A stretch of 35,931 nucleotides of DNA from an uncultured Candidatus Peribacteria bacterium (GCA_964598195.1 CAZRBF010000001.1:5696-41626); one strand, 5' to 3'; shown: positions 9,048 through 34,411, counted from the stretch's first letter. A program made the numbers and translations. Notes: generated from the letters alone by a model not told the origin.

Positions 9048-10373
9048 TTATTGACGACCGATCGAGAAGTACAGAAATCCGTGCTTCCGAGGAGTGTTCA
9101 CGTCTTTGTAGATGTTTCGTCCATCAAAAATAACGGGTTTTTTCATGCGTTTCCTCATCTCATTCAAGTCCATGCCCCGAAATTCCTTCCATTCCGTGAC
9201 GATGATCAGACCATCAACATCTGCCAGAGCTCTCATTGCATCTCGTGCAAATGAAACTGCCGGTTCATCTTTGTAGATCTTCATTCCCTCTTTATAGGCA
9301 ACGGGATCATAGCAGACAGCCGTAGCACCACGCTTGACCAGTTCTCGGATAACACTGGTAGATGGAGCTTCGCGCATGTCGTCAGTGTTTGGCTTGAAAG
9401 CCAACCCCCAGATCGCAAACTTCATGCCAACGATATCACCAAAATGAGTAATCACCTTTTGAGCGAGAACCAACTTTTGGCGCTCATTGACTTCCTCCAC
9501 CGAGTCCAGAATTGGGAGATCTACTCCATATTCATGACCCGTGTGAATGAGGGCTTTGACGTCTTTTGGAAAACAAGACCCACCATAGCCAGGACCTGCA
9601 TGGAGAAAATCCATGCCAATACGTCTATCTGTTCCCATACCTTTTCTGATCGCTGTAATATCGGCACCAGTTTTTTCGCACAGACTTGTAAGCTCGTTTA
9701 TGAAGCTAATTTTGGTTGCGAGCATGGCATTTGCAGCATACTTTGTCAGTTCCGCACTCCGTATGTCCATACTCAGGACTTTGTCACGACCGAAGCCGAA
9801 AGAGTTGTATAACTCCGTCATAACCTCAAGAGCACGACTTGAATCAGTTCCGATAACCACTCGATCTGGTCGCATAAAGTCGTCGATAGCCGCCCCTTCC
9901 TTCAAAAACTCTGGGTTTGAAACGACATCAAAAGAAGCCGGTTCACCGCGTTGGGTAAAAAACGCCGATTCGATTGTTTTTCGAACTTTATCTGCTGTTC
10001 CAACTGGAACAGTCGACTTATCGACCACAACAGTATATCGATTCATATACCGTCCAATATTTTCTGCAGCCGATAAGACATGCGAAAGATCAGCTGACCC
10101 ATCTTCACCTGGCGGAGTGCCTACAGCGATGAATTGCACATCGCCATATTCAGCCGCCAACTGGATGTCTGTCGTAAAAGAAATTCGCCCAGCGATCATA
10201 TTTCTCTTGATGAAATCGTCAAGACCGGGCTCATGGATGGGTATTATTCCCTGGTTCAAGTCTTCGATCTTTTTGGCATCGAGATCCAAACACAAGACAT
10301 TATGTCCCACCTCCGCAAAACAAGCAGCCGTAACAAGTCCGACGTATCCGCTACCAATAACGGTAATTTTCAT
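9048..10373 (-). CDS. ugd: UDP-glucose 6-dehydrogenase
   Basis: Intact 441-aa ORF. N-terminus MKITVIGSGYVGLVTAACFAEVGHNVLCLDLDAKKIEDLNQGIIPIHEPGLDDFI, catalytic region GGSCFPKDV, C-terminal WKEFR. TAA stop. No TGA codons. Confidence 0.95.
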   Translation of the reverse strand: MKITVIGSGYVGLVTAACFAEVGHNVLCLDLDAKKIEDLNQGIIPIHEPGLDDFIKRNMIAGRISFTTDIQLAAEYGDVQFIAVGTPPGEDGSADLSHVLSAAENIGRYMNRYTVVVDKSTVPVGTADKVRKTIESAFFTQRGEPASFDVVSNPEFLKEGAAIDDFMRPDRVVIGTDSSRALEVMTELYNSFGFGRDKVLSMDIRSAELTKYAANAMLATKISFINELTSLCEKTGADITAIRKGMGTDRRIGMDFLHAGPGYGGSCFPKDVKALIHTGHEYGVDLPILDSVEEVNERQKLVLAQKVITHFGDIVGMKFAIWGLAFKPNTDDMREAPSTSVIRELVKRGATAVCYDPVAYKEGMKIYKDEPAVSFARDAMRALADVDGLIIVTEWKEFRGMDLNEMRKRMKKPVIFDGRNIYKDVNTPRKHGFLYFSIGRQ

Positions 10374-11043: not shown

Positions 11044-12051
11044 TTATTGAGGAGTAAGAACAACATTATTAAAGTTTACATTCGTATTAACAGGTGTTGC
11101 CCAGGTGGCGTCATTTCATCCGAAGAAATTGGAGAATATTACTTTAGTTATATGAGTGGTGTCAGCTTTTCGGAAGGTCACCGCACTGTCGCGAAATACT
11201 TCTTTGTCATCGACATATATAACGATGACCCCGTCATTTACTCCAGGAGTATTGAGCTTGATTGTCTGGCTTACTTTATAGTACTTTCCAGTAGTGAATC
11301 GGAATGATCAACGCCCAAAGCTCTGACCGTATGCTTCTGTCTTGGTTGGAACATATCCGTATACTTCTATATCACCGTTGGTTCTCCACATGAATCGAGT
11401 AGAAAAGTCATCTCCAACGGGTGCTCATCCAGTTGGACAGGTTCCTGTACAGAATCCAAATCCAAACTTTCCACCCTTGTTGAACTTGAAGTTCTTATCA
11501 AACATGACATTAAATGAAATGTTTGCAGAATCAAGGGTTTTTCCTATGCTATAGATGAATCCTCCTCCACCAAGAATAGGACTATTTTCAGGACTATAGC
11601 TTCATGCTGGGAAGAATACTTTTATCCCACCAGAGCTCGTAAGGCTCATGTTTTCTTTTCCCCAAACGCGCTCATAACCAGCAGGAGTTGGTTTATCGAG
11701 AGCAGAGGTGAAAGAAAGGGTTTCTGAAGTATTTGTAGCTCAGAGAACGACTGCTGGAGCAGGGGACTGGGGAACTGTTTTTGAAGATTTTTTCTTGTTG
11801 GCTTTTTTGGTTGAAACAGCAGTTGCTAATGGAGCCTCTTTTTTATTCTTTATCTTATGAGACTTTTCAGCATATGTGATATCAATTTTTCATGAATTCA
11901 GTGTATCTGCTTTTGATGAAGAGGCAAAACAAGAAGTCAGCAGAATGGCTGCCACAGTAAATGAGACCCCTACGACGAGGAATCGTGATAGGGTATTTTT
12001 CTTTGCATGAGATATATTCTCAGGTGATCCTGATAGTTTGGTTGTGTTCAT
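11044..12051 (-). CDS. lipoprotein with polysaccharide-lyase-fold domain (Pfam Polysacc_lyase / PL14-20-like pattern)
   Basis: Hand translation of the minus strand with TGA=Gly gives 335 aa. Signal/lipobox LVVGVSFTVAAILLTSC, a Lys/Ser-rich linker, then FKFNKGGKFGFGFCTG...STRFMWRTNGDIEVYGYVP...YYKVSQTIKLNTPGVNDGVIVIYVDDKEVF...ITKVIFSNFFG(G)NDATWA. TAA at 11044-11046. Six TGA codons. Confidence 0.55.
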
Positions 12052-12081: not shown

Positions 12082-12909
12082 CTAATTTATGTCATACGGT
12101 GCACCTTTGAGATTTACTGTATCGATTCGGTAATTATCTCCGGTATAACTTGGTCCCCATCTCTTGATGAGATGTGGTGTCTCGTCAGCATTGATATGAA
12201 CAGTATTAGATTGACTCGTGCTCCATGTCGGACTTACTTCTATACTATCAGAATTAATTTTTGTTACCGTGAAGAGACCCCCGGTACTCGTAAACTCTAC
12301 AACGTCTTTTACTCTAAATCCTGTCTCTATTGCGAGCTTTCCACTGAAGGTAAAGACGTTACTTCCACTATTGATAACCCCCGCATAATTATTGGATCAT
12401 AATCTTGGGACATATGTTCCATCTATCAATGACTTCGGACTTCAGCCATTTTCTATGGTTGCAGCCAGTTCATAGTAAGAGCCATTATAATACGTAACTC
12501 CTATCTTGTACGCTGTAGTTGTTTTTGTAGGATCGGAGAAGTTTTCTTGTTTGAGTCAGAGTACATTGTAGTTGACATCACCACCGACATAAGTTCCAGA
12601 GAGTGCCCCATATCACTCTATCCCAGAGAGCCGTATACGACTTCCATTTGCACCAACTGTTGGTCCAGTATTAGTGTGTGTTATAGTGGATCCTGTGCCA
12701 AGTACAAATATATTAACAGGAGACCCTTTGATTATAGAGAGATCTATCGCCTGTTGTATATTTCAGAGATCTGAACTCCGTCGTGAATCTCGGGCATCTG
12801 CGGCCATTCCTTGAAAAGAGAGAAAAGAGACAGTTCCAAGAATCACCAAAATTGTGATGACCACGATTAGTTCCACAAGAGTAAATCCTTTTTGATTTGT
12901 TTGTTTCAT
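12082..12909 (-). CDS. type IV pilin-like protein (prepilin-type N-terminal cleavage/methylation domain)
   Basis: ATG at 12907-12909 (minus). MKQTNQKGFTLVELIVVITILVILGTVSFLSF is the classical G/FTLVE class III signal. The 275-aa frame is joined by five TGA codons and ends at TAG 12082-12084. It lies 30 nt upstream of the lyase-like gene. Confidence 0.8.
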
Positions 12910-13212
12910 AGGCAGGAAGACATGAATTAAAATTGCCACTCATTTTTCTGTGTAAAAAGGAGATGGCTGATTAAAAGTTAACTCGAAATAAATATTTTCG
13001 GTTGAGATCGATTGAGTGTTACACTATACTCAAATATTTTAGTAAATCAAGTACATTTCAAATTTTGATTCTATTGTCCCGTTTCAAATCCGACCAACAG
13101 TTGTGGGATCTAGAAAATCATAAAATTTTTATGTCCTACTGAATAAAAACTTGATTAAATATGAATAATCATTATAAGCTATAGAATATATTACCTAGTT
13201 ACATTATTTACA

Positions 13213-17140: not shown

Positions 17141-17485
17141 ATGATTCTGACCACTCAATATCGTGTTGATATTCAAAATATTTCTTTTGAAGTCTTGAAT
17201 TCTGAAGTATTGCTCAGAATTTTTATGCAAAAAATTATTGAGTCTGCTGATTTAACAGTACTTTCTTCGTATTTTCATGCATTTTCACCACAAGGCATTA
17301 CCGGTGTTTTCATACTCTCTGAGTCACATTTCTGTGTGCACACATGGCCAGAAGCTGGATATGCTATTTTTGATCTATTGAGTTGCACAGATGAACAAAA
17401 GACCCTTGGAACTCTCGAGATATTTAAACAAGAATTTTGAGAAGAGAATATTCAAATAAAAGTTCATAGTAATATAGTTGGTTAA
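17141..17485 (+). CDS. speD: S-adenosylmethionine decarboxylase proenzyme (small pyruvoyl class)
   Basis: ILSESHFCVHTWPEAGYAIFDLLSC matches the self-processing ES site and HTWPE motif. The standard-code end TGA 17438-17440 is read through to TAA 17483-17485. Confidence 0.85.
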
Positions 17486-17569
17486 TGTTTGAAATTGGAA
17501 ATATAGAAAATATATTTGCTTTTGGAGAATAAAATTCATATAATGCAGTCATATTCATAATTTTATTGA

Positions 17570-18964
17570 ATGGATACCACAGAAAATACTAAAACAATAG
17601 AAGAACAACTCAAGGAGGTCTACTCTCTCTATTCTCAGGGGGATTATGTTCGTGCAAATGAACTCAATGAGGCCATATTGATAAAGGAGCCTGGAAATAT
17701 GTATGCTGCAAAATACAAATCTATTCTTCAGAAGAAAGTTTCTATTGAGGGAGGATGAAAAAAAGCGTACATAGGATGAACAGCCCTCAAATGTCCGCAT
17801 TGTGAGTCAAAGATTGCTTTTTCTGCACTCAGTGAAGAACAACAAAAAAAGATATCAACCAAAGATATCAATAATCTCCCTATAAAATGCCCGTATTGTC
17901 ATACAGAATTTATCTTGCAAAATAAATCAGAAGCATCGCTTCTTTGACTGAAGATTGGATATACTGGAGTTATTGATGATAAAAAATACAGAATTGTTGG
18001 GTACGTCAAATATGATGGAAAGTGGTCTGAATATATTGATGGTGGAGTGGATAGTAGCGGAAGACTTGAATACCTGGAATGGATGCTACTCGGAGAAGAT
18101 AATAGTTTCCTCTATCTTTCAGAAAGTACCTCTACTTACGCAGGAGAAACAGAGATTGAATTTGAATTATCGGAGAAGATTACCCCTACGTTTGGGCTAG
18201 AAGTACAAGATTTTGTGAAAATAGATGGGAGTATTGTTGCAGATTATGAACTCGATACTGTTACTATTAAGAGTGTTTATGGTGAAAACTCGAAGTCTTA
18301 TGCTATCGGAGAAAAAGTGGAACTTATAAGCTTTGAACGAGGCGGAGTGCAATATGCAGTAGAAAAAGAGTCTTCTCTCCGACAAAAAGAAATTGGCGTG
18401 TATGTATCTCGAATAGTTTCAAAAAAAGAAATATTTTGAGCCTTTGATATAAAAGAAGAGCAGACAGTCTCAGAAAAGAGCCCATGAATGAATTCTGAAT
18501 GAATATTTAAAAACTTCAGTTTTCGCGAAGCAGCTGCAGGTATACTTATCTGACTTGTTGTGGGAATACTTGTATATATGTTTGCTCTCGTAGGGTGAGG
18601 CAAAACTTTAGTCGATGAACATAATCTCGTACTTGGAAAGAGTTATTTTATCGATGGAAAACATACTGATAATCTCGGTACTACAACCTGCAGTGATGAT
18701 GGAGAATCTTGGACTTGCTATAAGTATAGGACGAGAAATGGTTTTGCTTTTTCTGTAAAAGATGAGACAGATAGAACGGGCATATCAAAGCTTAAGGATA
18801 ATATAGGGAACGTTACTGATGCTGAGCTAAAAGATGTATTACAGGGGAAAGTGTATGAGTTCCATGGTGACTATATGGTATATCAACAATTATCATTCTT
18901 ACTCTGGATTATTTTATGAGTATCAGTATTCCTATTTTTTAGTTTGTTTGCAAAAAAAGATTAA
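17570..18964 (+). CDS. TPR-like / Zn-ribbon / DUF4178-domain protein with C-terminal TM segments
   Basis: Fragments 17570..17758, 18047..18439 and onward are one frame joined by seven TGA codons, ending at TAA 18962-18964. Zn ribbon: CPHC...CPYC. DUF4178-like core: KYRIVGYVKYDGKWSEYID...LEYLEWMLLGEDNSFLYLSES. TM segments: AAAGILI(G)LVVGILVYMFALV and FLLWIIL(G)VSVFLFFSLF. Confidence 0.7.
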
Positions 18965-18974
18965 CCTTTTTCCT

Positions 18975-19211
18975 ATGAAAATACTTTTAACCATTCTCGT
19001 CTGCTCTTTTATACCTATAGGGGTTTTATATAGTAGCGTCAATCTATCAACTCCTCCGCCTCTCTCATCCCAGATAGATATGAAAAGTTTCTCTCCGATC
19101 AATCTCCATGGGGATGTGGATACAGGGACTCAAGATGATTCCCCATCAGGATGATCCTCTGGAGGAGTTTGAGGCTCATCCTGGTGATGAGGTTCCTCTG
19201 GGGGAAAATAA
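18975..19211 (+). CDS. small signal-peptide protein with Gly/Ser-rich tail
   Basis: ATG 18975 gives MKILLTILVCSFIPIGVLYSS.... After the standard-code end at TGA 19152-19154 the frame continues as SSGGV(G)GSSW(G)(G)GSSGGK to TAA 19209-19211. Four of the tail glycines are TGA. Confidence 0.45.
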
Positions 19212-19249
19212 TCTTTAAATATTTTTTATCTTTATAATTTTTCTATATT

Positions 19250-19474
19250 ATGGCAGCATCTGGACTTACACTCGAAATTCTTATGAATGAAGTGATTTTG
19301 AGTGTCGTATTTTGTGGTATAGGACTTGCGATTATGTGGGTAGCTTTTTATATTGTGACCTGTAAGGTGAATGTAAAAAAAGAACTCATCGAAGATGAGA
19401 ATATCGCTCTCGCGGTTATGTTTGCTGGTTTTTTCATAGCAGTGGCTATTATAATTGCTGCGGCTATTAAATAA
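19250..19474 (+). CDS. DUF350 (YjfL-like) small membrane protein
   Basis: 74-aa ORF with two hydrophobic helices separated by KKELIEDENIALAVMFAGFFIAVAIIIAAAI, the characteristic DUF350 repeat pattern. TAA stop. Confidence 0.65.
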   Translation: MAASGLTLEILMNEVILSVVFCGIGLAIMWVAFYIVTCKVNVKKELIEDENIALAVMFAGFFIAVAIIIAAAIK

Positions 19475-19512
19475 TTATTTATTTTTAAATCATAACAATT
19501 ACAACTATGTGA

Positions 19513-20535
19513 ATGTTCAATAATCTTTTCAGTGATCAATTTATCGATGTTATTCGTTGGGATAATCCAGAACCAGATTTTCTTATAAAAAAATGGAGTC
19601 AGAACCTTGACGAGATAAAAAACAGCTCGAGTCTCGTAGTAGATCCGGGTCTTTCTGCTATCTTTATTCATAATGGTAAGGTTGAGGCGATTCAAACAGA
19701 GTCATGAAAATGGACTCTTGACACTTCTAATGTCCCATTTTTATCCAGTCTCAAAAACTTTATGAGTGGGATGGAGACTCACGATAAGGCACAAGTGTAT
19801 TTTATTAAAACCAACGAGATTACGAACCAAAAGTGGGGAACTCCGAACTGTATTACATATATCGACCCGATTTATAATTTCCCAGTGGAACTCCGTGCTT
19901 TTGGTAATTTTACATTTCGTATCACAGATATAGAAAACTTCTGGGTCAATTATGTGGCGAATAGAGAGAGCGTTTCTACAGATACCATTCGTATGGTAAT
20001 CGTCGATCGTCTCGTTGGAACCATCGCTTCTATACTCGCAAAGAAATCTATTGCATATACTGAGATTGCAAAATATGGACCAGAGATTGCAAAGGATCTC
20101 ATGGAAGCCACAAAGGAAGAATTTGCAAAATTTGGTCTTTCTCTCACAGATTTCCGTATTGAAAATACAAATTTCACCGAAAAAACTCAGGGATTCATCG
20201 ATAAAGTAACTTCTAAGAGTGCCGACGTTGCAGCCATTAATACGACTGCAAATATTAATCAAAGTGCCATGCATAATTACTCAAATATCGAGAAGCTCAA
20301 TATCGCCTGAAAGGCTGCCGAAAATGGTGGTGCAATGGGTGATATGATGGGTGCTGGTATGGGCATGGCAATGGGTGCTTCTATGGCTGGAAGTTTATCT
20401 GGTAAAATCGATACCCAGGAGGTTTCAGTATCGCCAGCTTCTAAACTGGAAAAAATAAAAGAACTCTTGGATAAGTGACTCATTTCCCAGGAGGATTATG
20501 AGAAGAAAAAATCAGAAGTTCTCTCTCAAATATAA
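19513..20535 (+). CDS. SPFH/Band-7 family protein of the YdjI type with C-terminal SHOCT domain
   Basis: Fragments 19513..19707 and 19762..20310 plus the tail are one frame joined by TGA codons. The N-terminus MFNNLFSDQFIDVIRWDNPEPDFLIKKW...EIKNSSSLVVDPGLSAIFIHNGKV is YdjI-like. A Gly/Met-rich linker leads to KLEKIKELLDK(G)LISQEDYEKKKSEVL, a SHOCT motif. TAA at 20533-20535. Alternative ATG at 19507. Confidence 0.8.
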
Positions 20536-20557
20536 TTCCTTTAAATCCTTATCCGCA

Positions 20558-22054
20558 ATGCTTCTTTTTATCGTCGCCCTCATAGCTATATCGGGTATTC
20601 TTTATGAACTTCTTATTTGAACTTTGAGTTCGTACTTGATAGGAGATAGCGTGGCACAATTCTCTCTTACGATTGGGTTGTTTATGACAGGCATGGGTAT
20701 CTGAGCTTATCTTTCTCGATATCTTCAAAAAAAGGCCTTAAAATCATTTTTTTGGATAGAGATTATCCTCGCGATTCTCGGAGGAAGTTCCATTATTCTC
20801 TTGAAGCTTGGTTATACGTATCTTTTTTCTGTAGAACTGAGTTTTTATTCTCTTTATACCATACTTACCCTTCTTATAGGTATCCTCATAGGTATAGAAA
20901 TACCTCTTGTGATGCATATATATAAGATTCTTGGTACCTCAAGAGAAGAGGATGTCTCAAATATTTTTACATTTGATTATATAGGAGCTCTCCTTGCGAG
21001 CCTCATATTTCCTTTTGTACTTCTTCCATATTTGTGAGTATACAATACTGGGGTATTTGTGTGATGTTTAAATCTCATTGCTGCTTGATTATATTTGATA
21101 GCAATACGAAGGGTACTACAAAAAAATGCTTTTATGTGGTATCTACTTACTTGTTTATTGGCTGGAATATATTTGCTAAGTTTGCTTTTCATGGGAGAAC
21201 GACTCGAATCATTCTTTATGAGATCATATTACAAGGAGCCAATTCTGTTTCATGAACAGTCTCCTTATCAGAGTATAGTGCTCACAAAGCGATGAGAAGA
21301 TGTACGACTTTTCCTCAATGGAAACCTCCAGTTTCTCTCTCTCGATGAAGGAAGGTATCATGAGTCACTCATAGATTGGCCGATGAAACTTCTCGCTACA
21401 CAACAAAATATCAATGTTCTTGTCCTTTGAGGTGGGGATGGTTTAGCAGCAAGAAATCTGCTTGCTTATAAAAATATCCAATCTATCACGTTGGTTGATC
21501 TTGATCCACGGATGGTAGAACTTGCCAAGAGTCAAAAAGAACTCCTTATACTCAATAAGTCAAGCTTCCTCGATCCCCGTGTTAAGATAGTCGTATGAGA
21601 TGCCTTTGCATATGTAAAAAAGGAATCAGCTAATCAATTCGATCTCATCGTAGCAGATTTTCCTGATCCACGGGATGTTGGAACTGCTAAGCTCTATTCT
21701 CAGGAGTTTTATATAATGACGAAGTCTTTGCTTCGAGATTCATGAATTTTTGTCACTCAAGCAAGCAATGCCTTTTTCTCGAAAGAAAGTTTTTGGAGTG
21801 TTGAGAAAACGATGAAAGTTGTATTTCAAAACACAAGGCCGTATCATAGATACATTCCAAGTTTCGGAGATTGGGGATTTATTCTTGCTTCAAAGAACGT
21901 AGATAGACTCGTAGATGTAAATTTCTGCAATAGTTCCAGGTGTGACTATTTTGATACAGACTATATGCCAACTGAAATTATTGAGGAAAATACCCTAGAA
22001 AAACCAGTCATTATCCAGTACTATATGCGTGGATACAAACGTTTTAATTTATAA
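20558..22054 (+). CDS. speE: membrane-anchored polyamine aminopropyltransferase (spermidine-synthase domain fused to N-terminal multi-TM domain)
   Basis: ATG 20558 and fragments 20801..21037, 21095..21295 and 21812..22054 are one frame joined by about nine TGA codons. N-terminal TM region LSGILYELLI(G)TLSSYLIGDS. Catalytic region SPYQSIVL...LFLNGNLQF...VLVL(G)GGDGLAARN...ITLVDLDP...IVADFPDP. Confidence 0.85.
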
Positions 22055-22065
22055 CCCTCTTTTTC

Positions 22066-22650
22066 ATGACCTCATCTTTTCAATGTCCTTCGTGTGGGAG
22101 TCCCATAGAATTTGATGCAAAATATGCTCGAATAGTGAGTTGTGTATACTGCCATACTGTTTTAGAATTTGGGACAGGGGAACTTACTATCGTCTGACAA
22201 CAGAGCGAGTTTATTGATTTTCCGAGTATTTTCATAGTAGGTTCAACTACTCCATATAAAGGCAAAAATATCTTTGTTCATGGACTTATTCGATATGAGT
22301 ATGATGGAGGTTTTTTTGATGTATTTTTCGCAGAAATTGATGGAAAAAAGCTTTTTATCCAAGAGGATGATGGCTCGATAACTTTTTTTCAGGAATCAGA
22401 TTGGGTGGATGCTCCATTTGAATTGGACCTTTCTATGGTGGGAAAATCACTCGTAATAGATGGAAGTAATTACTTTATCCAAGAAACCTGAGTTCAAAAA
22501 GTAGTAAATATCAAGGGGAGTATTGATTCGCTTTTTGTACCAAATAAAGAATATGAATACTATGATGGCACTACAAATGGGAATCAGATTTTTATTAGGA
22601 GAAATCCTGAAACGAAACAGATTCGAGTAGGAAAAGAAATCAGTATTTAG
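22066..22650 (+). CDS. Zn-ribbon plus DUF4178-domain protein (second copy)
   Basis: ATG 22066 gives MTSSFQCPSCGSPIEFDAKYARIVSCVYCHTVL, then KGKNIFVHGLIRYEYDGGFFDVFFAEIDGKKLFIQEDDG. There are two internal TGA codons and TAG at 22648-22650. Invisible in the standard-code track. Confidence 0.7.
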
Positions 22651-22664
22651 CCATAACAAAAGAT

Positions 22665-23303
22665 ATGCTCGAAATATTTATTCCAACAGAAATTCCCGAT
22701 ATCCTCTCGCTCCATTTGATAGAACCAGGTTTTTTCTCATTGGTGAAGGCTCATTTTCCTGTGACTATTACTCCATTTGAGTCACCGTTTTTTCAGGGTT
22801 TCCATATTCAAACAACGAGTGAATCTCAGGATATAGTATCTCTCTGTAATGGTTCATTCTGAACAGACTATTTCATAGATTATGATTGGCAGAATTCTCA
22901 GATCACCTCGCTCGGAAAGCGTTTTTTTCAACCAGATTCCATAGGAATGGAACTTACATCTATATCGAATGATTTTGATTCTATCGTTCAGACTTTGAGT
23001 TCTGATTATCTTTTGACGAAGTCGAAAAAAGAGGAAAGTATTAGAAAGATTAAACACTCATTTTTTCTTCTTTCTGGAGTTGTTTTTAATCTCGTGGAAC
23101 TTCGTAGAAAAGTTCGAGAGAATATCCATGAACTTGAAGCTCTGGCAAATGATTCAGAACAAAAAATCGAGTATCAAAGCCATGGGGCTTTACTCATAGA
23201 GCCTCTTCGAACCAAAGAGATAGAACTGACTGCGAGTCTTGGTACACTCGAACAAAAAGTCGCTCTTTTTATAGACGCAACGAAACATTTTATAACCACA
23301 TAA
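22665..23303 (+). CDS. hypothetical protein (212 aa)
   Basis: ORFs 22665..22862 and 22947..23303 share a frame and are joined by TGA 22860-22862. TAA stop. No recognised motif; the C-terminal half is helical. Confidence 0.55.
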
Positions 23304-23308
23304 TTTCT

Positions 23309-23539
23309 ATGTTTCAATACGAAAAAAACGAAGAAGGGTATTGGATTTGGTCAGAGAAGATGACCGGGAAATATGGTCCATTTCAAGGAATTTATGTCAA
23401 AAATACGATCCACGGGCATTTCCCCGCTACATTTGATGTATCGAAGTATCCAGGGTATAAATATGCTCTCGGAAATGGGGTGGAAAATATTTTTCTCTTA
23501 TCACTGACAGAGTGTGAGGATATATTTCGTTCTATATAA
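23309..23539 (+). CDS. hypothetical small protein (76 aa)
   Basis: Intact ORF 5 nt after the previous stop. MFQYEKNEEGYWIWSEKMTGKYGPFQGIYVKN.... TAA stop. Confidence 0.45.
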   Translation: MFQYEKNEEGYWIWSEKMTGKYGPFQGIYVKNTIHGHFPATFDVSKYPGYKYALGNGVENIFLLSLTECEDIFRSI

Positions 23540-23636: not shown

Positions 23637-24746
23637 ATGGCAGATACACAAGTAAAAACACAGGATCCAGCAACTCAGGCTGCGGTTACAGAAATGAAGA
23701 TTATGACTCTCGGTGCTCTTGAACGAGCCGAAGTAGAGGCAACTTTTGCTGAGGCAAAAGACTTTCGATCCATCGGAGAAAAGATTACTGCTCCACTCGA
23801 TAGTATTATCTCCGAAACTGCGAAGATCATCGACAAGGATCCGATAATGAATGTAAATGAGGAACTCCAAACCATGAATACCTCCGTTCAGGCAGTGTAC
23901 AAGGAGATTATCGACAATGACGGAACTATTATGAAGATTGCGAAATCTATTCCACTCATCAGCGGGCTCGCAAAAACACTCGATGCTAAGTGGGACGAGG
24001 CAAGTTTCAATGTAAAATCACTCGAAGGGAAAATCGGAGTTATTTTCTCCGGATTTGACCAAGCATATACGAGTCTGAATACCTCGATCGATATGCAAAA
24101 ATCCTTTCTCGATGGAATCGAAGCCAATATCGGCAAGGTCGTTGCTTACAAGGAATTTCTCGCTGAAAAGATTCTGGAGTTCAAATCAAAAGGAGAATTG
24201 GCAACCAGCGAAGACGAGAAGATGAAATATGATATGTTCCTCCGAAATGTGGAATTCTTTCAGTCCAACCTCGTAGTCCTCATCGGAAACCTCGAGCTTG
24301 CTCGAAAACGTCTTCTGATTCGACTTGATAGTGCCGCAAAGCTCTCTCTTGCGATGAATTCGTCACGACCCATATTCAAAACTCTCCTCTCTACTGCCCT
24401 CATTGAAACCTCTTCACAGAAAGCTCTCGAGGCAAGTATTAAGGCCATAGGAGTTATGGGTGAAACCATCGACAAGATGTCCTCAGGACTCACTGACAAG
24501 GCGATCGAGTCCAGTCGTCGAGCCGAAGAGATGTCTTCCAAGCCGGTTCTCTCGACGTCCGTATTCATCGAAAATGTCACCAAGCTCAAGAATCACTTCG
24601 AGGAAATCGATGCATACCGAGCTCAGGTGAAAATCGAAGCTGACAAAGAGAAAACTCTTTTTGCTGAAGCTAAGACCAAACTTGACAACATCAAGACTAT
24701 CTCCAAGAAAAATCAGGAAGAACTTGCAGAACAACTTTCACAGTAA
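23637..24746 (+). CDS. TelA-family (toxic anion resistance / YaaN-YceH-like) protein
   Basis: 369-aa all-helical ORF. Its length and helix pattern fit TelA (for example LRNVEFFQSNLVVLIGNLELARKRLLIRLDSAAKL..., IETSSQKALEASIKAIGVMGETIDKMSSGLTDKAIESSRRAEE, VLSTSVFIENVTKLKNHFEEIDAYRAQ). TAA stop. No TGA codons. Confidence 0.65.
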   Translation: MADTQVKTQDPATQAAVTEMKIMTLGALERAEVEATFAEAKDFRSIGEKITAPLDSIISETAKIIDKDPIMNVNEELQTMNTSVQAVYKEIIDNDGTIMKIAKSIPLISGLAKTLDAKWDEASFNVKSLEGKIGVIFSGFDQAYTSLNTSIDMQKSFLDGIEANIGKVVAYKEFLAEKILEFKSKGELATSEDEKMKYDMFLRNVEFFQSNLVVLIGNLELARKRLLIRLDSAAKLSLAMNSSRPIFKTLLSTALIETSSQKALEASIKAIGVMGETIDKMSSGLTDKAIESSRRAEEMSSKPVLSTSVFIENVTKLKNHFEEIDAYRAQVKIEADKEKTLFAEAKTKLDNIKTISKKNQEELAEQLSQ

Positions 24747-24757
24747 TTGGAATATAA

Positions 24758-24790
24758 ATCTCTCCCGAGTTCTCGGGAGAGATTTTTTTT
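24758..24790 (+). terminator. strong rho-independent terminator after the TelA-family gene
   Basis: atctctcccgag / ctcgggagagat is a 12-nt inverted repeat with 2 nt between the arms, followed by T8. Confidence 0.85.
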
Positions 24791-24811: not shown

Positions 24812-25555
24812 ATGGAAGAACTATCTAATACTGCTCTACAAGAAATAAAAGACTTACAACAAAAAGATGTTTTTCAATTTGTTTTGGTTCACTTTTGAAT
24901 ATTGCTATTATCTTTATTTGTAATATTTTTTGTATCGTCTATTATCTCTGGAATATTGAATTTAAGTAGGGATTTCTTTGGATTGAGTTTAGTGTGATAT
25001 TCTATCGCAGCTATTATCTATGCAGTATGGATTTTTTATACTATTTTTTTCAGATATGATCGTATGATCAATAGATTTAATCAAGAAATTCAAATTATTA
25101 AAAATAAAAAAGATTTTATAGAAGAACAATTTATGGAACTTACATGATATATAGAGAAGGATATTAATGAGATGGGTATTGATAATTGATTGGTAATGAA
25201 AATAAAAATGAGCATTGATACTATTCGTAACAATATCACAGACTATGTAGTATCTGTAAAAAAACTTGGAATTAGCAAAGAATTCTCTTGATTGATAGTT
25301 AACTCTAAAAAATTTCTTGATTTACAAGTAAAGTTTACCACTTCTATTTTACAGGAGATGAATTTTTGACAACAAAATTTAATACAACTTATCCAATCCT
25401 GGATCTCCCATCATGCAACAGAACTTGCAGAACTCGAAAAACAGATAGCATCACAGGAGCTTGCTACTGAAAATACCGGATGAAAAGTAGCTCTTGAGAT
25501 TTCAAGAATCTCCTTGCAGGAGCATTTGAAGGAGTTAGAGAAGGTGAGGGTTTAA
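24812..25555 (+). CDS. array paralog A: 2-TM membrane protein with conserved C-terminal helical module (XpaC-like architecture, unverified)
   Basis: ATG 24812 opens a 247-aa frame through eight TGA codons to TAA 25553-25555. TMs: VLVHF(G)ILLLSLFVIFFVSSII and SLV(G)YSIAAIIYAVWIFYTIFF. C-terminus: QSWISHHATELAELEKQIASQELATENTG(G)KVALEISRISLQEHLKELEKVRV. Confidence 0.7.
25394..25555 (+). repeat. 162-nt conserved 3' coding module, copy in paralog A
   Basis: caatcctggatctcccatcatgcaacagaacttgcagaactcgaaaaacag...ggagcatttgaaggagttagagaaggtgagggtttaa aligns colinearly with 27006..27167 and 27837..27998. Confidence 0.85.
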
Positions 25556-25571
25556 AAATAACTTATGTGTT

Positions 25572-26342
25572 ATGGTATGATGAATAAATGATAGAACTAA
25601 TCCTCAGATAGAGTGATTTATTCTGAAATTATCAGATCGAAGTATATCGTATCAGGTAATAAAATATAGAATCTTCGCTCTTGCTCTATGTAGTTTTTTG
25701 TATCTTGGAGGATTTATATCTGGGCTCTTTTGATCTAGTATTTTGACATTACCTTTCTGGATTATATGAATCTATTTTTTGCTCTTTTTACCACCAAAAA
25801 ATGAAATTGAAGGTATTATAAACTATACCGTATATCAAATGAGAGTTATCGGAGAACAAAAAATGGCTCTTCAAGATTCCTTTGATCACTTTCTTGAATT
25901 AGGAAAGAACGATTTTAGGGAAACATGAATTAATCCTATACTGGTAACAGATACTGCCAATGAAATTAATGGCATTTCTACAAAAGTACAAACATTCCAA
26001 AAACTTCTCACTGATTTTGATAAGGATATAAGGATATCTGGCAAAGAATGATCCGGTGTACCTCCGATGATGGTTCGTTTTATTCGTTGGCACTTTGCAG
26101 ATATAATTAAAGATTTTATCGTTTCTCAGCAAGAATGGATTAAAGGCGCTGTTCCTATTTTCTCTAAATGAATACAAGCCTTTCTTACAAACCATGCCAA
26201 TGAATTAAAAGAACTTGATACATCTATTTTGAAGCAGGCAGAATTGACGGAGAGCCTCTCAGGACAATGAGTATTAGATCTTCAGAAAGTTCGACTCGAG
26301 AAGCATATCGAGAATCTTGATAAGGTACGAGCAAGATTATAA
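25572..26342 (+). CDS. array paralog B (divergent member)
   Basis: ATG 25572 opens a 256-aa frame through about ten TGA codons (translated codon by codon) to TAA 26340-26342. There are two TMs. C-terminus: QAFLTNHANELKELDTSILKQAELTESLSGQ(G)VLDLQKVRLEKHIENLDKVRARL. Confidence 0.65.
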
Positions 26343-26363
26343 TCTTATTTTTAAAATTTGAAT

Positions 26364-27167
26364 ATGAAACAACACTACATGGAACCAGACATAGAAAAAT
26401 ACGTCACCACTCGCCAAAATCATCTGGAATATAAACGGTTTCAAGGGCTATTTCTTATTGACATTATAGGATATGAAGCATACGCCAATATGAAATCTTC
26501 TCTTTTTTCGGAGTGGTTATTTTCTAAAATTACCATACATTTATTCTCTATTTTTCATATTTTTTGATGATTTTTGCCTATTTTATATTGATGTTATCGT
26601 GTGTATTCTGAACAATCTCTTGAGTCCCTTACATTTCTGTTATTCTTCGTAGCCTTTTGAATAGGATTAATTCATACAGGATATAAATCTTTCCGCAGAA
26701 TAGCCGTATATAAGAAAACTCTCCGTTATCTTGAATCGAAAGATACTATCGTGAGCGAAAGAGAAAAGCTCGAAACAAGCATAGCAAACGATGTAAATAA
26801 TGGTTGAATAGATGTGGCTATTTTGTGGGATATCAAAAAATGCATAGTCTCTATCCTTGAATGATATCGGATTATATCAGTCTCGCATGAATATATATTG
26901 AACCATAAGTGATATTTTGGAAGAATATCCCGAGAATGACAAGAGGTTATCAATAAAGAGTTTCAATGGATTGTCGCTTACTCACAGGAATTTACTCTCC
27001 TTGTTCAATCCTGGATCTCCCATCATGCAACAGAACTTGCAGAACTGGAAAAGCAGATGGAATGACAGGAGCTTTCGACAGAGAATACTGGTTGAAAAGC
27101 AGCACTCGAGATTTCGAGAATATCACTACAGGAGCATTTGAGGGAGTTGGAGAAGGTGAAGGTTTAA
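26364..27167 (+). CDS. array paralog C
   Basis: ATG 26364 (ORF 26358..26567 is its first fragment). The frame was checked codon by codon through twelve TGA codons to TAA 27165-27167. C-terminus: QSWISHHATELAELEKQME(G)QELSTENTG(G)KAALEISRISLQEHLRELEKVKV. Confidence 0.7.
27006..27167 (+). repeat. 162-nt conserved 3' coding module, copy in paralog C
   Basis: Same length and register as the copies in A and D. Similarity between C and D extends about 50 nt further upstream (from about 26958 and 27789). Confidence 0.85.
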
Positions 27168-27206
27168 TTTGGGGTGAGATTTTTTAAAAAGTAATAACCA
27201 TAAGAT

Positions 27207-27998
27207 ATGGATGCTAATAATCTTGAGGATAAATATACTGAATTTCAGACATTATTACTCATTGACCTTATGTGAAATACGACCTATGAGAAGATGAAAT
27301 CATCTCAATTAACAACATTAACATTTTATAAATTTACTATAATTCCGTTAATTCAAATAATCATATGATTATTTATATGTCTCGCTATCATGTGAGAATA
27401 TTTTGATGTAATATTTGGACACTCTGATTTAGTAAAAGATGGATGATTTTCTACGAGCCTAGTTCTCTTTGTTCTATTTTTTTCTTTGGCTTTTTATTGA
27501 TATATAAAGCTCCGTAAGATATTTTTATATAAAAATATTTTTTACTATCTTGACAGCAGAGATTCTATCATTTCTGAAAATAAAAATTTTGAAATTCTTA
27601 TCAAAGAAGATTTTGATAAACACTGAATAGACGCGGACATTATCCTGCGGATTAAAAAATCTATCTCATCTATTCTAAAAGGTTATGCTTTGATTTCAAA
27701 ATACCACAAAGGCACCCAAGAACAGTTATTGAAAATAGGTATGCTTATGCGTATATTTAATGGATGATTAATGAAGATGATTGATAGTGAACTTCAATGG
27801 ATTGTTGACTATTCGCAAGAATTTACTCATTTTGTCCAATCCTGGATCTCTCATCATGCAACCGAGCTCGCAGAACTCGAAAAACAGATAGCATCACAGG
27901 AGCTTTCAACGGAGAATATTTGAGGAAAAGCTGCTCTTGAGATTTCGAGAATGTCACTTCAGGAGCATTTGAAGGAGTTGGAGAAGGTGAGGGTTTAA
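27207..27998 (+). CDS. array paralog D
   Basis: ATG 27207 opens a 263-aa frame through eight TGA codons to TAA 27996-27998. It is homologous to C along its whole length (LLIDLM(G)NTTYEKMKSS versus LFLIDIIGYEAYANMKSS). C-terminus: QSWISHHATELAELEKQIASQELSTENI(G)GKAALEISRMSLQEHLKELEKVRV. Confidence 0.7.
27837..27998 (+). repeat. 162-nt conserved 3' coding module, copy in paralog D
   Basis: Same length and register as the copies in A and C. By eye it is roughly 85-90 percent identical at nucleotide level. Confidence 0.85.
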
Positions 27999-28062
27999 AA
28001 TAATTTGTATTAACGTACTGAATTACTATAATCATACTATTTACTCATTATTAGTCCATCCC

Positions 28063-29340
28063 ATGCCCATCTCCATCCCACCAGAGCTTTCCTCAAGAAA
28101 TTCGCTCATTCGAGAGTCCGTTGAATCCAGGGGATTCTATCTCTATAACTGGATATCGTTTGAAGAGCTTCGCAAGACGGTTGCGAGGGACTATCTATGG
28201 CTCCTCTCCAGGCTTCTTGTGCCCTTTGGAATAGTCGTAATCCTTGGAGGATTGTACGATTTTTATGTCCTTTGAGACACGAGATTTATCTGGACGATTA
28301 TCTGACTCACTGGAGTGTATACTCTCATATTTTTGGTGATCATCTTTCGCATGATTGCACGATCGTGGACCTTTCTTCATATTTCAAATATAGTATTTAC
28401 CGATACCCATCTTTGAATCGGTGGTCAAATAGTTCCTTATAAGGAGTATGATACAATGAGCGAACAGATTCGTGAATGGGGTGACGAATTTGAAGAAGAA
28501 TTCATGATGCCATCTAAGATAGACGAAAAAATTGGGCAATTCAAGGCCCGGGTATTTACGTGGGGTGCGAGCAAAGAGGAGAAGAAGACAAAAAAAGAAA
28601 CTTCTATGTTAGACAGCTGTGGGAGCTTTGATGGATGTGGAAAGTCAAATAGCTGTGGGGGTCCTGATTGCTGAGACGTTGGAGATGGAGCAATCGTTTT
28701 TGTCGTGATTGTTTTCTGACTCATTGCTGCATACTGGATTTCCATACGAGTATTCTACGCTCTCGGGTGGATACTTTCTTTCCTCATCGGGTGGATATTT
28801 GTTGGTATCATGAAGATGATCGTGATAGTACAATGACGCGAAGAGATGAAAATCCAAGGACTTTTCGAGAAGCTTGAAATACTCGCAAGTGAACTTATTT
28901 CGTCGAAAAATATGATTGTAAAAAGTCTTAAAAGTGCTAATGAATGAGCATGGGACGAGTGAACCAAATGAGTGGTGGATAAGTTTAGTATGACTATCGG
29001 GAAAGCATGGACAGGGATCAATCTTGTGAAGAAACTAAAATCTACACTTGAAAGTTCGAAATACACGAGTATATTTAATTATGAGACATTCGATCTTTGG
29101 ACCAAGGGTCAGATTCTTGAACCCATTAATGAGATGATAGAACTACAGAGTACTTCGCTCAGAAAACTCGAGGATTCTATTTTTACTCTCAAAAATCAGA
29201 TACAAGAGACTCAGAATCCAGCTTTTGTAATTCTACTTGAAACGCAACTCAAACGATTGGAGATCCAACGAAAGCCACTCGAATCTATGCAAGATCAGTG
29301 GAAGGGGGTAGGGGCGAAGATTATTGTTGGAAAGTTTTAA
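28063..29340 (+). CDS. array paralog E: ~4-TM membrane protein (425 aa), long form of the same family, with Cys/Gly-rich insert
   Basis: Fragments 28063..28275, 28456..28674 and 28972..29340 are one frame joined by TGA codons. N-terminal motif PPELSSRNSLIRESVESRGFYLYNWISFEELRK. C-terminal module IFNYETFDLWTKGQILEPINEMIEL...LLETQLKRLEIQRKPLE. TAA stop. Confidence 0.7.
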
Positions 29341-29352
29341 CCTTCACTTTTT

Positions 29353-29568
29353 ATGTTTAAGAATTTTGCTATATCACTCATAGAACTCTACCAGATCTAC
29401 TTCAGTCGAGATCATTCCTTTTGGCGAACCTCAGATACTCGCAGAATCTGCAAGATGCAACCAAGTTGCAGTCAGTATACTCGAGAACAGATAGGGAAAT
29501 ATGGAGCATTGAAAGGAATGTATCTCGGATGGAATCGGGTTCGGAGTTGTGGGAAAAGTAGGAAGTAA
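29353..29568 (+). CDS. yidD: membrane protein insertion efficiency factor YidD
   Basis: 71-aa ORF. LIELYQIYFS...CKMQPSCSQYTREQIGKYGALKGMYLGWNRVRSCG matches the YidD signature (LIxxYQ, C-x-PSCSxY, G..KG, R...C). Confidence 0.85.
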   Translation: MFKNFAISLIELYQIYFSRDHSFWRTSDTRRICKMQPSCSQYTREQIGKYGALKGMYLGWNRVRSCGKSRK

Positions 29569-30994: not shown

Positions 30995-32353
30995 ATGAAA
31001 TTCTATAACAGAAAACAAGAACTTGAGATACTCCAAAAAATAACCAATTCATCCCGTTCGGAGCTTGTATATTTTCTAGGGAGGCGACGCATTGGTAAGA
31101 CGAGTCTTATGAATCATTTTTTTACGAGCAAGAATCAAAAATACTTGTATTTTTTTGTGTCTAACAAAAAAGAATGAAACCTTTTGCAGAGTTTTTCCGA
31201 AACTCTCAAAGAATATCTAGGTTATGACATACACTTCCATTCCATCAGAGAATTTCTCAAATTTTTATTTGAGTATGGAAAAGAGCATCCTTGACTTTGT
31301 GTCGTATTTGACGAGTTTCAAAATTTCACGTATGTTGATGAAAGTATTTTTGATGATTTTCAAGAATTTTGGGATAAATATAAAGAAGGGGCCAATATAA
31401 AACTCTTCGTGATCGGATCACTCTTTACTCTTATGGAGGATATCTTTCAGAGTAAAAAATCTCCACTTTTCGGCAGAGCAACTGCAAAAATTGACGTGCA
31501 AGAATTTGAAGTCGTGACACTTAAAAATATCCTTAGTGACTATGATATGTTTTCGAGTAGGAATCTGCTCGATATATATACACTGTTTGGTGGAGTTCCA
31601 AAGTATTTAGAAGTATTGGACACTATTAAACCCTGAGAGAACCTCTTACTCGAAACCATTCTGAGTGAAGTGTATCTTACGGAAAATTCTATGTTCCTGA
31701 GAGAATGATCCGATCTTCTGCTGACCGAATTTGGAAAAACATCCAGTGTGTATTTTTCCATACTGGAAGCTATTGCCAATGGATACAATAAGAGATCAGA
31801 GATTGCCGATTATACGAAAATGAACTATGATTCCCTTGGACTCTATCTTGAGAATCTTGAAAAAGTATATCATTATATTGAGAAACTTACCCCTATTATC
31901 GCACAAAAAACAACCCTCAATAGATATAAAATCCAAGATAATTTTCTCATTTTTTGGTTTCGATATATCTATAAAAACAGCAATCTTCTCGAGATTAAGA
32001 AATATACAACCCTCAAAGATCATATTCTGGCCGATATAACCAGTCTCCAGTGATTTGCCTTTGAAAAACTCGTGAAAGATCTTCTGATTACTCAAAATAT
32101 CACAAATAGATATATCATAGATTTTGAGAGTATTGGAAATTACTGGGATAAGAGTGGGAATGAGATAGATCTTATTTGTCTGAATTCGCGCACCAAAGAG
32201 GTAGTTTTTGTAGAGTGCAAGCTCAGTGGTACGAAGATTACTGGAGCAGTAAAACAGTCACTTATTGCAAAATCAGAGAATATTCCTGAGCTCAAAGATT
32301 ATAAAAAGTATTACCAGTACTATAGTTTGGATAATCTGGAGGAGTTGTTTTAG
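30995..32353 (+). CDS. ATP-binding protein, Arch_ATPase/DUF234-type AAA ATPase
   Basis: Fragments 30995..31177, 31409..31636, 31748..32053 and 32072..32353 are one frame joined by TGA codons. N-terminus FYNRKQELEILQK...LGRRRIGKTSL (Walker A), Walker B VVFDEFQ. A winged-helix-like middle region (SVYFSILEAIANGYNKRSEIA) and a C-terminal DUF234-like nuclease-fold tail (GNEIDLICLNSRTKEVVFVECK). TAG stop. Confidence 0.75.
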
Positions 32354-33723: not shown

Positions 33724-34043
33724 CTTTTCAGTAACCTTTTTAATTCTGGTAAAGAATATTTGATACTACTCCACACAATTTCCTCGTCTATTCAGGCATA
33801 GTCATGTGAAATTCGATTCCTAAATCCAGACATCTCATTAAAGGGGATATTTTTGTAGTCCTGAGAAGTAAGAGATCGGATTTTGAGTCCGCATTCTCAG
33901 ATGTGTTGCAATTGCATACAGCATGCATCAAAAGTTTTCTCATCGTCGTAAAATGCTCATAAATCCATACCTTCAACGTAGCGCTCTATTTTATCGATGG
34001 CATTAAGGATCTCGTACTCGTAATATTGGATATTTTTTTCCAT
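33720..34043 (-). CDS. hepT: HepT-like (DUF86) RNase toxin of an MNT/HepT toxin-antitoxin pair
   Basis: Hand translation gives MEKNIQYYEYEILNAIDKIERYVEGMDL(G)AFYDDEKTFDACCMQLQHI(G)ECGLKI...FRNRISHDYA(G)ID. The RxxxH motif (RNRISH) is present. TAA at 33720-33722 overlaps the stop of paralog F by 3 nt. Confidence 0.8.
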
Positions 34044-34044
34044 G

Positions 34045-34353: not shown

Positions 34354-34411
34354 ATTTTGCATAGTTACTGGTAATTGGTCGTAAGTATACGGATTTTCGA
34401 TATATTTCCAA

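Follow-up and report, generated by a model that had tools for sequence, protein, structure and literature searches.

A cluster of co-directional genes was analyzed in a 35,931-nucleotide stretch of DNA (hereafter the window, with positions counted from its first letter) from an uncultured Candidatus Peribacteria bacterium (GCA_964598195.1, CAZRBF010000001.1:5696-41626). The genes, numbered g1 to g10 in order, encode an S-adenosylmethionine decarboxylase (AdoMetDC or SpeD; g1), a membrane-embedded aminopropyltransferase with a SpeE domain (g6), DUF350 (g4) and SPFH-SHOCT (g5) proteins, two DUF4178 proteins (g2 and g7), a Gly/Ser-rich miniprotein (g3), and the downstream proteins g8, g9, and g10. 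The region is a single co-directional and probably co-transcribed cluster of a Gracilibacteria-type bacterium that uses genetic code 25. It represents, in Gracilibacteria, a bacterial cluster that has been described before, is very widespread, and is functionally unsolved. Judged from sequence, its function is on balance likely to be the aminopropylation, dependent on decarboxylated S-adenosylmethionine (dcAdoMet), of an acceptor other than putrescine at the membrane or envelope, not the bulk synthesis of spermidine. Three features are new here: the miniprotein is one of a family, so far without annotation, that extends over several phyla and has a constant C-terminal [G/H]-Lys; g8 and g9 (22665-23539) are Gracilibacteria-only genes that travel with the cluster; and the amine oxidase often encoded beside it in other phyla is missing.

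Genetic code and gene layout

Gene calling with translation table 11 produced short open reading frames (ORFs) with every gene fragmented, and was replaced by code 25. Once TGA was read as a sense codon, the total length of long ORFs (≥ 100 aa) climbed from 7,575 to 22,619 aa. Given that in-frame TGA codons sit at universally conserved glycines (RecG DEQHRF-G, MraY GDV-G-S, SpeE L-G-GGDG, and SHOCT K-G-LIS), the window was assigned to code 25 (TGA = Gly), which is typical of Gracilibacteria and Absconditabacteria. Across ORFs of ≥ 150 aa, 133 in-frame TGA codons were tallied against 240 GGA, 139 GGT, 108 GGG, and 49 GGC. Near-identical and related database proteins come from metagenome-assembled genomes labelled Candidatus Gracilibacteria. 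Many database homologues carry W at the TGA positions, where TGA was presumably predicted as Trp.

The initial annotation had described seven co-directional genes with short gaps at 17141-22650, and all seven were recovered on the + strand under code 25, separated from g1 to g7 by 84, 10, 38, 32, 22, and 11 nt. Their end at g7 did not hold, as the conserved unit runs on to g8 and g9. The gene set recurs in independent assemblies (the related loci L002, L087, and L089) and is therefore not a chance arrangement. A terminator-like hairpin (24756..24785, +; 13-bp stem with 6 G-C pairs, followed by a T-run) closes the co-directional run, and no other hairpin of comparable strength was found on the + strand between 17141 and 24746. 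Promoter-like sites numbered 29 versus 26.5 ± 4.7 in shuffled sequence, so that there is no excess and no promoter is claimed.

The decarboxylase and the membrane aminopropyltransferase

The first gene (g1, 17141..17485, +; 114 aa with 1 TGA-Gly codon) encodes a class 1b AdoMetDC, in agreement with the speD-type decarboxylase called initially. Scores of 97.4 bits to AdoMet_dc (PF02675) and 93.5 bits to TIGR03330 (cutoff 75.65) were obtained, and the SESH processing site, the HTWPE motif, and the Cys of the Thermotoga maritima AdoMetDC (1tlu) are all kept. The HTWPE proline has been described as a mark of true AdoMetDC as distinct from the arginine decarboxylase (ADC) form (PMC10407285). A neofunctionalised ornithine/arginine decarboxylase was considered for g1 and rejected, since the AdoMetDC equivalog cutoff is passed and this proline is kept.

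The fusion of a multi-transmembrane (TM) domain to a spermidine synthase was likewise borne out for g6 (20498 or 20558..22054, +), in which the N-terminal multi-TM portion precedes a C-terminal SpeE domain. Translation could start at ATG 20498 (518 aa) or at ATG 20558 (498 aa), and database homologues are called at 498 aa. The protein matches NF002956 over its full length (532.7 bits, cutoff 472) and Spermine_synth (PF01564) with 129.7 bits; against the TIGR00417 speE model it scores 143 bits, under the cutoff of 249.55. At least six TM or hydrophobic segments lie ahead of residue 215.

Using alignments to 6bq2, 7xif, and 1iy9, the motifs SPYQ, YHE, GGGDG, VDLD, GDA, and DFPDP were all located in g6. 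Loss of the donor-binding residues had been named at the outset as grounds for dropping an enzymatic reading; they were looked for in g6 and are all present, so that the reading survives. In a 15-sequence multi-phylum alignment of membrane SpeE proteins, the catalytic Asp pair, GGGDG, YHE, and the Gln are invariant, and the membrane domain (~230 aa) has invariant polar residues of its own (Q34, R54, E68, E114, D140, and N172 in P0033 numbering). The closest solved structures to g6 are thermospermine synthase 6bq2 (2e-36) and 7xif. These nearest solved enzymes, which are thermospermine synthase or broad-specificity aminopropyltransferases and not classical SpeE spermidine synthases, share a D-[LF]-x-D-P active-site motif, where Bacillus subtilis SpeE (1iy9) has D-S-[ST]-[DE]-P.

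The DUF4178, DUF350, and SPFH-SHOCT proteins

Domain searches that failed to recover DUF4178, DUF350, or SPFH had also been set in advance as a ground for refutation. The searches were run and all three were found, DUF4178 at the profile level. The long-form Zn-ribbon-DUF4178 membrane protein (g2, 17570..18964, +; 464 aa) consists of a ~66-aa helical N-extension, two CxxC pairs, a DUF4178 beta domain, a TM segment at 323-341, a ~100-aa loop, and a second TM segment at 443-461. Of the TPR/Zn-ribbon/DUF4178/TM architecture first assigned to it, the TM and DUF4178 parts stand, and the TPR part is weak (Fis1_TPR_C 18.9 bits, below the cutoff of 25.3). Its short-form counterpart (g7, 22066..22650, +; 194 aa) has a Zn ribbon, a DUF4178 domain, and no TM segment.

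Neither protein reaches the Pfam gathering threshold of 25 bits for DUF4178 (PF13785) as a single sequence (g2, 16.1 bits, E 0.013; g7, 16.7 bits), and E < 0.01 is reached by only 2 of 32 members of the g7 family. Two hidden Markov models (HMMs) were built from neighbours of membrane SpeE in other phyla, one from 46 long-form proteins (~440 aa) and the other from ~210-aa short-form proteins; their seeds pass Pfam (73.3 and 36.4 bits), and every Gracilibacteria sequence was left out. The long-form HMM matched residues 67-336 of g2 (E 9.4e-18, 62.8 bits) and the short-form HMM matched g7 (E 6e-31). Searches with phmmer further linked g7 to ~200-aa proteins beside SpeE in Leptospira (4e-26) and Anaerolineae (6e-25) and to a Pfam-verified protein of locus L027 (2e-9), while homologues of g2 fill the matching slot in 59/80 of the loci surveyed below. 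The DUF4178 identity of g2 and g7 is thus confirmed by sequence profile; the original call of two DUF4178 proteins stands at these E values and fails at the Pfam single-sequence cutoff.

The DUF350 gene is borne out above cutoff. The product of g4 (19250..19474, +; 74 aa) is a single-repeat, half-size, YjfL-type protein with 2 TM segments (15-33 and 52-70) that matches model positions 3-65 of 133 in PF03994 (40.2 bits, cutoff 26). The SPFH protein with a SHOCT tail was recovered as g5 (19507..20535, +; 342 aa), with 134.8 bits to Band_7_1 (PF13421), 31.4 bits to SHOCT (PF09851), and a Gly/Ala/Met-rich hydrophobic segment at 270-298; its orthologue in L027 has an identical domain architecture. 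The YdjI-type label applied to g5 does not extend to the tail, which is SHOCT and not the Zn ribbon that Ravi et al. report for the Band-7 protein of the B. subtilis ydj operon (PMC11237479).

Distribution and gene neighbourhood

In order to place the cluster among bacteria, species-representative genomes were surveyed; at least 598 species had a membrane SpeE match, and the 80 best loci were inspected, with neighbours counted within seven genes of SpeE. At E ≤ 1e-20, the membrane SpeE family comprises > 7,700 protein clusters. The 80 loci come from Bacteroidota, Proteobacteria, Melainabacteria, Spirochaetes, Firmicutes, Chloroflexi, Acidobacteria, Actinobacteria, Verrucomicrobia, Myxococcota, and Campylobacterota. 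The neighbourhood statistics proposed with the initial annotation were obtained from these loci: DUF4178 lies near SpeE in 71/80 and DUF350 in 65/80, with SpeD in 40/80, two DUF4178 genes in 29/80, and SPFH in 13/80. In the consensus arrangement, SPFH-SHOCT comes first, followed by SpeD, the short and then the long DUF4178 gene, a small ORF, DUF350, and SpeE, and after these by a flavin adenine dinucleotide (FAD) amine oxidase and an unnamed multi-TM protein.

The complete six-family set of the window was present in 6 loci, from Obscuribacterales (two), Novosphingobium, Parasphingopyxis, Acidobacteria, and Bryobacterales. The cluster is therefore not special to the Candidate Phyla Radiation (CPR), since Melainabacteria, Alphaproteobacteria, and Acidobacteria have the identical set. 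Of 133 neighbours without a label, 25 matched Amino_oxidase, 3 matched PspA_IM30, and 3-4, in other phyla, matched pyridoxal phosphate (PLP) ornithine/arginine decarboxylases. Pfam was also scanned with the window proteins, all but RecG, MraY, and ORFs < 130 aa. No match to PspA/IM30 (PF04012) was found among the proteins scanned, with g8 and g10 negative even when matches up to E = 10 were admitted, and none of those scanned matched Amino_oxidase. The absence of PspA, which had been considered noteworthy, is usual in this branch given the 3 matches in 133 neighbours.

Two of the amine oxidases of other phyla were inspected, and both have a hydrophobic N-terminal leader with an S-R-x-x-F-L-K stretch, which we read as a putative twin-arginine translocation (Tat)-type export signal. 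If so, the amine product would lie outside the cytoplasm. The multi-TM protein encoded after the oxidase (about 340-381 aa; L027:13141-14286, L032:13148-14170, and ~30 other loci) has the His-rich motifs DVAHVY, FHFIRQQYGF, THGIPY, and THYxLDGFIW; it matched no Pfam family, and its gene is absent from the window.

A miniprotein family with a constant C-terminal lysine

The 78-aa miniprotein g3 (18975..19211, +) opens with a hydrophobic helix (3-21), and its Gly/Ser-rich tail finishes with SSWGGGSSGGK-stop. This C-terminus is unchanged in L087 and L089, although SpeE identity is as low as 56%. Counterparts of 45-80 aa were found in at least 50 species over many phyla, in the slot directly upstream of DUF350 or SpeE. 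They have one N-terminal hydrophobic helix (43/49) and a Gly-, Ser-, Tyr-, and Arg-rich tail, and the C-terminus is always [G/H]-Lys-stop (YHK, GGK, YGK, SGK, HHK, FGK, and similar). Neither g3 nor its counterparts matched a Pfam family.

Of 116 small ORFs that end ahead of DUF350 or SpeE, 50 have the [GH]K ending, and they come from 50 of the 79 loci of other phyla; in a slot-matched control of small ORFs that precede unrelated genes, the count was 0 of 168 (Fisher p ≈ 1e-23). Its codons vary synonymously (AAA/AAG, CAT/CAC, four Gly codons, and three stop codons), and the spacing varies as well, so that the terminus is under constraint at the level of the protein. A Shine-Dalgarno or other nucleotide signal was considered in its place and ruled out by the synonymous variation, the variable spacing, and the slot control. 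For Shewanella, Ravi et al. list a "LipoSIG+Ctha_1186+Low-comp" protein in the same slot (PMC11237479), and a protein in this position had thus already been noticed. No mention of the terminal lysine was found.

Proposed function and alternatives

A possible sequence of events can be outlined for the favoured function, the aminopropylation of an acceptor other than putrescine. SpeD, whose processing and catalytic residues are intact, would process itself into a pyruvoyl enzyme and release decarboxylated S-adenosylmethionine (SAM) in the cytoplasm. The catalytic domain of the membrane SpeE would then pass the aminopropyl group to an amine acceptor bound or presented by the multi-TM domain. The strict synteny suggests that a membrane assembly is built or controlled by DUF350, the miniprotein, both DUF4178 proteins, and the SPFH-SHOCT scaffold. 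Within the DUF4178 pair, g7 would be soluble and g2 would span the membrane with its loop outside; g8 and g9 may be lineage-specific accessories.

This function is supported by the domain identities, the intact active sites, the tight gene spacing, and the single strong terminator after g10, as well as by synteny over at least 598 species-level genomes and recurrence in diverged Gracilibacteria. Also in its favour are the thermospermine and broad-specificity enzymes that are closest to g6, the leader of the amine oxidases in other phyla, the suggestion of Ravi et al. that other substrates are aminopropylated, and the reported findings of Li et al. 2019 (both set out under known systems below). 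Several points weigh against it. The equivalog matched by g6 (NF002956) is named "polyamine aminopropyltransferase", and the residues for ordinary polyamine synthesis are all present. The association of DUF350, DUF4178, and SPFH with SpeE is drawn from synteny. No putrescine or agmatine enzyme and no SAM synthetase was found among the window proteins scanned against Pfam, a result that spans 36 kb of the genome, and a source of putrescine or agmatine may lie elsewhere. In the retrieved 21.5-kb stretch of L089 no SpeD was called, so that SpeD is not adjacent in every relative. The self-contained polyamine synthesis proposed in the initial annotation is unproven, as no gene for putrescine, agmatine, or SAM was among the scanned proteins; published experiments reportedly point to an acceptor that is not putrescine.

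The best surviving alternative, which we nonetheless regard as unlikely, is that imported putrescine or spermidine is converted by SpeD and the membrane SpeE into free spermidine or a longer polyamine such as thermospermine, and that the other genes encode envelope proteins which use or respond to the product. Such a pathway would fit the NF002956 score above cutoff, the intact donor-binding and catalytic motifs of g6, the bona fide AdoMetDC type of g1, and the PLP decarboxylases encoded among the neighbours in other phyla. It does not require the DUF350 and DUF4178 proteins that flank the enzyme in 65 and 71 of 80 loci, since a housekeeping pathway has no need of them, and a diamine source is missing among the scanned window proteins. 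The lack of spermidine and the failed complementation that Li et al. 2019 reportedly observed also speak against it. The "aminopropylation of other substrates" was also raised by Ravi et al., citing Li et al. 2019 (PMC11237479).

More doubtful still is a second alternative, in which the acceptor is a protein: the Lys-terminated miniprotein (g3 and its cross-phylum counterparts) would be modified by the membrane spermidine synthase (SpdSyn)-like enzyme with dcAdoMet supplied by SpeD. In favour of this reading, the miniprotein immediately precedes DUF350 or SpeE in 50 of 79 loci and has no equivalent among the 168 control ORFs, and the terminus is conserved as protein and not as nucleotides, with the g3 tail kept among Gracilibacteria whose SpeE proteins are 56% identical. 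A parallel is offered by the Escherichia coli DUF1190 proteins YjfM (L090:6388-7026) and YgiB (L091:2245-2916), whose Gly/Ser/Arg-rich low-complexity tails end in ARGHWGG and SSRSMGG; each adjoins a "peptide--spermidine ligase", and the physiological substrate of such YjfC/YgiC-type ligases is stated to be unknown (PMC11762307). By analogy, YjfM and YgiB may be the physiological substrates of the adjoining ligases YjfC and YgiC, and the comparison suggests that tail proteins could more generally be substrates of the polyamine enzymes beside them.

Other observations speak against the miniprotein as acceptor. Most tails are basic but that of g3 is acidic, and the tail may lie on either side of the membrane relative to the cytoplasmic catalytic domain; the Shewanella counterpart, described as a lipoprotein (PMC11237479), would lie outside the cell. 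SpeE keeps both aspartates of the diamine motif, which fits a free diamine better than a peptide Lys with its neighbouring carboxylate. Roughly 1/3 of loci show no such ORF, some of these on incomplete contigs. If the miniprotein were nevertheless aminopropylated at its C-terminal Lys, the product would be a membrane-anchored protein with a spermidine-like terminus, and together with the Gly-Gly DUF1190 proteins it would point to a general system of C-terminal protein polyamination around DUF350. The miniprotein is in any case a concrete candidate for the missing substrate or partner and makes the question of the acceptor directly testable, and the parallel prediction reaches the E. coli peptide-spermidine ligases.

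A non-catalytic role, in which dcAdoMet or a polyamine bound by the SpeE domain would act as a signal to a membrane-repair assembly based on SPFH, is suggested by the association with SPFH-SHOCT (and with PspA in other lineages) but is very improbable, given that the catalytic Asp pair, GGGDG, YHE, and Gln, invariant in the multi-phylum alignment, are present in g6 and that half of the loci also carry the gene for a dedicated AdoMetDC.

The cluster is among the most widespread bacterial gene clusters without solved chemistry, and it ties SAM and polyamine chemistry to the membrane-stress machinery (SPFH, and PspA in other lineages). Gracilibacteria are generally described as having reduced genomes. 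Retention of the cluster in these bacteria suggests an important role for the cell envelope.

Downstream genes in Gracilibacteria relatives

Downstream of g7, the cluster continues with g8 (22665..23303, +; 212 aa), which consists of a small alpha/beta domain and a long helical hairpin, and g9 (23309..23539, +; 76 aa), which always directly follows g8. No Pfam family was matched by either protein, and an AlphaFold2 (AF2) model of g8 (pLDDT 69, pTM 0.68) gave no significant structural match. Homologues of g8 number 6 in all, each of Gracilibacteria type, and no relatives of g8 or g9 were detected outside the Gracilibacteria lineage. The g8 gene adjoins SpeE and g7 in L002, L004, L006, L007, L087, and L089, and g9, with the motifs GPFxG and KYPGYK, is kept in L002, L004, L006, and L089.

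These relatives range from near-identical (L002) through ~85% identical (L087) to 56% SpeE identity (L089). The order in L089 is a g2-like gene, a 78-aa ORF, DUF350, SPFH-SHOCT, SpeE, a 209-aa ORF, a 77-aa ORF, and a g7-like gene. A ~210-aa homologue of g8 accompanies SpeE and the g7 homologue in L004, L006, and L007, with a 76-aa homologue of g9 next to it in L004 and L006. The cluster is split in L004 (2376-10000) by an inserted ABC ATPase, McrBC, and AAA_14 protein and in L006 (4361-8685) by a 1040-aa protein and a Na/Ca exchanger, and in both g8, g9, and g7 are still together. Because they accompany SpeE and g7 even where other genes are inserted, g8 and g9 belong to the Gracilibacteria version of the cluster.

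The last co-directional gene before the terminator, g10 (23637..24746, +), encodes an all-helical protein of 369 aa and does not count among the conserved genes of the cluster. Apart from the window, L001 is the one locus in which g10 comes after g9, and L001 belongs to the organism of the window itself; in L087 a different small gene comes after the g8 homologue. Relatives of g10 amounted to 77 cluster representatives among 1.84 billion proteins. No Pfam match was obtained for g10 itself, and nothing significant was found in the PDB by sequence profile or by fold. Weak full-length matches to TelA (PF05816, cutoff 30 bits) were obtained for 2 of 10 relatives (P0170, 20.3 bits over model positions 13-327 of 332; P0159, 15.9 bits) and none for g10, which on this sequence evidence may at best be distantly TelA-like. 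The possibility that g8 or g10 is an unrecognized PspA or CesT was also considered and rejected: there was no Pfam match, the best Foldseek E was 0.06, and Vipp1/PspA appeared only among generic helical hairpins.

The g10 gene (369 codons) is free of TGA, as is the gene for UDP-glucose 6-dehydrogenase (9048-10373, -; 441 codons), unlike their neighbours, and the latter has a GC content of 0.47 versus ~0.37 elsewhere. Both may have been acquired recently from standard-code organisms.

Other features of the window

Upstream of the cluster, the - strand encodes a polysaccharide lyase 14 domain protein (11044-12051, 156 bits) and a type IV pilin-like protein with an N-terminal methylation motif (12082-12939). 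Beyond the terminator, four tandem paralogues on the + strand (24812-27998) encode membrane proteins of ~247-269 aa with a coiled-coil tail. Three of the four share a near-identical C-terminus, QSWISHHATELAELEKQ...STEN[TI]GGKAALEISR[IM]SLQEHL[KR]ELEKV[KR]V. Three more paralogues of ~425-467 aa (27937-29340, 32440-33723, and 34493-35860, all +) share the motif RGF[YC][LF]Y.W[IV]S[FY] near the N-terminus, have several TM segments, and end in a coiled coil. Neither set matched a Pfam family. YidD (29353-29568, +) and an ATPase_2/DUF234 protein (30995-32353, +) are encoded between them. At 33720-34467 (-), a HepT-like HEPN ribonuclease (85.8 bits) adjoins an MntA-type nucleotidyltransferase (51.9 bits), and by sequence the two look like a type VII toxin-antitoxin pair.

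Comparison with known systems

The link to envelope-stress neighbourhoods drawn in the initial annotation was upheld. With B. subtilis pspA-ydjGHI only the theme is shared, namely an envelope-stress operon in which a Band-7 protein occurs with a membrane protein that has a Zn ribbon (PMC11237479). That operon has PspA, TPM-domain, and NTF2-like/YpeB-related proteins and no polyamine enzymes, whereas in the window the Zn-ribbon proteins are DUF4178 proteins and the SPFH tail is SHOCT.

Both folds and the catalytic residues of canonical soluble SpeD and SpeE (T. maritima 1inl and 1tlu, B. subtilis 1iy9) are found in g1 and g6. Compared with soluble SpeE, g6 adds the ~230-aa membrane domain with its invariant polar residues, has thermospermine or broad-specificity enzymes as its closest solved relatives, and has DUF350 and DUF4178 as obligatory neighbours.

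The content of E. coli yjfIJKLMC is as initially described, with the genes annotated as DUF2170, PspA family, DUF2491, DUF350, DUF1190, and ATP-grasp ligase. The window shares DUF350 (YjfL) with it. In the window as in both yjfIJKLMC and tolC-ygiBC, a protein that is anchored in the membrane or exported, and whose tail is rich in Gly, Ser, Arg, and Tyr, is encoded beside a polyamine-handling enzyme. This enzyme is an ATP-grasp ligase in the E. coli loci, in contrast to SpeD and SpeE in the window, and the E. coli tails end in Gly-Gly where the window-type tails end in Gly/His-Lys. Unlike the window, yjfIJKLMC has PspA (YjfJ) and DUF2170 and is without DUF4178. A literature search for experimental work on DUF350/YjfL, Rv2601, and YgiB tails returned nothing decisive.

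A closer match is the cluster of Li et al. 2019, which like the window combines a class 1b AdoMetDC, a SpdSyn-like domain with an N-terminal multi-TM region, and an adjacent DUF350. In this work (Li, Kurihara, Kim, Liang, and Michael; Biochem J 476:2579), the AdoMetDCs were reportedly active, the species concerned reportedly had no spermidine, and an E. coli speE deletion is said not to have been complemented by the fusion proteins. The window differs in that its host is a code-25 Gracilibacteria-type bacterium and in the addition of g8 and g9.

The combination of genes is not new, since the cluster, including its PspA-free Band-7-SHOCT variant, was already described by Ravi et al. in 2024 (PMC11237479). 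Ravi et al. attribute the discovery of the AdoMetDC linkage to Li et al. 2019 and raise the "aminopropylation of other substrates" (PMC11237479). The PspA-CesT operons that they report contain DUF4178, DUF350, a 7TM-SpdSyn, and a lipoprotein whose tail is of low complexity; in their PspA-free variants the CesT-PspA pair gives way to a Band-7-2TM-SHOCT protein, and AdoMetDC and a polyamine oxidase are also encoded (PMC11237479). The window resembles the PspA-free variant in that Band-7, a hydrophobic segment, and SHOCT replace CesT-PspA, and in that AdoMetDC, DUF350, DUF4178, and the membrane SpdSyn are united in one operon. It differs in being without the FAD amine oxidase of that variant and without the multi-TM gene that follows the oxidase in other phyla, and its order is shuffled, with SPFH between DUF350 and SpeE and the short DUF4178 gene after SpeE.

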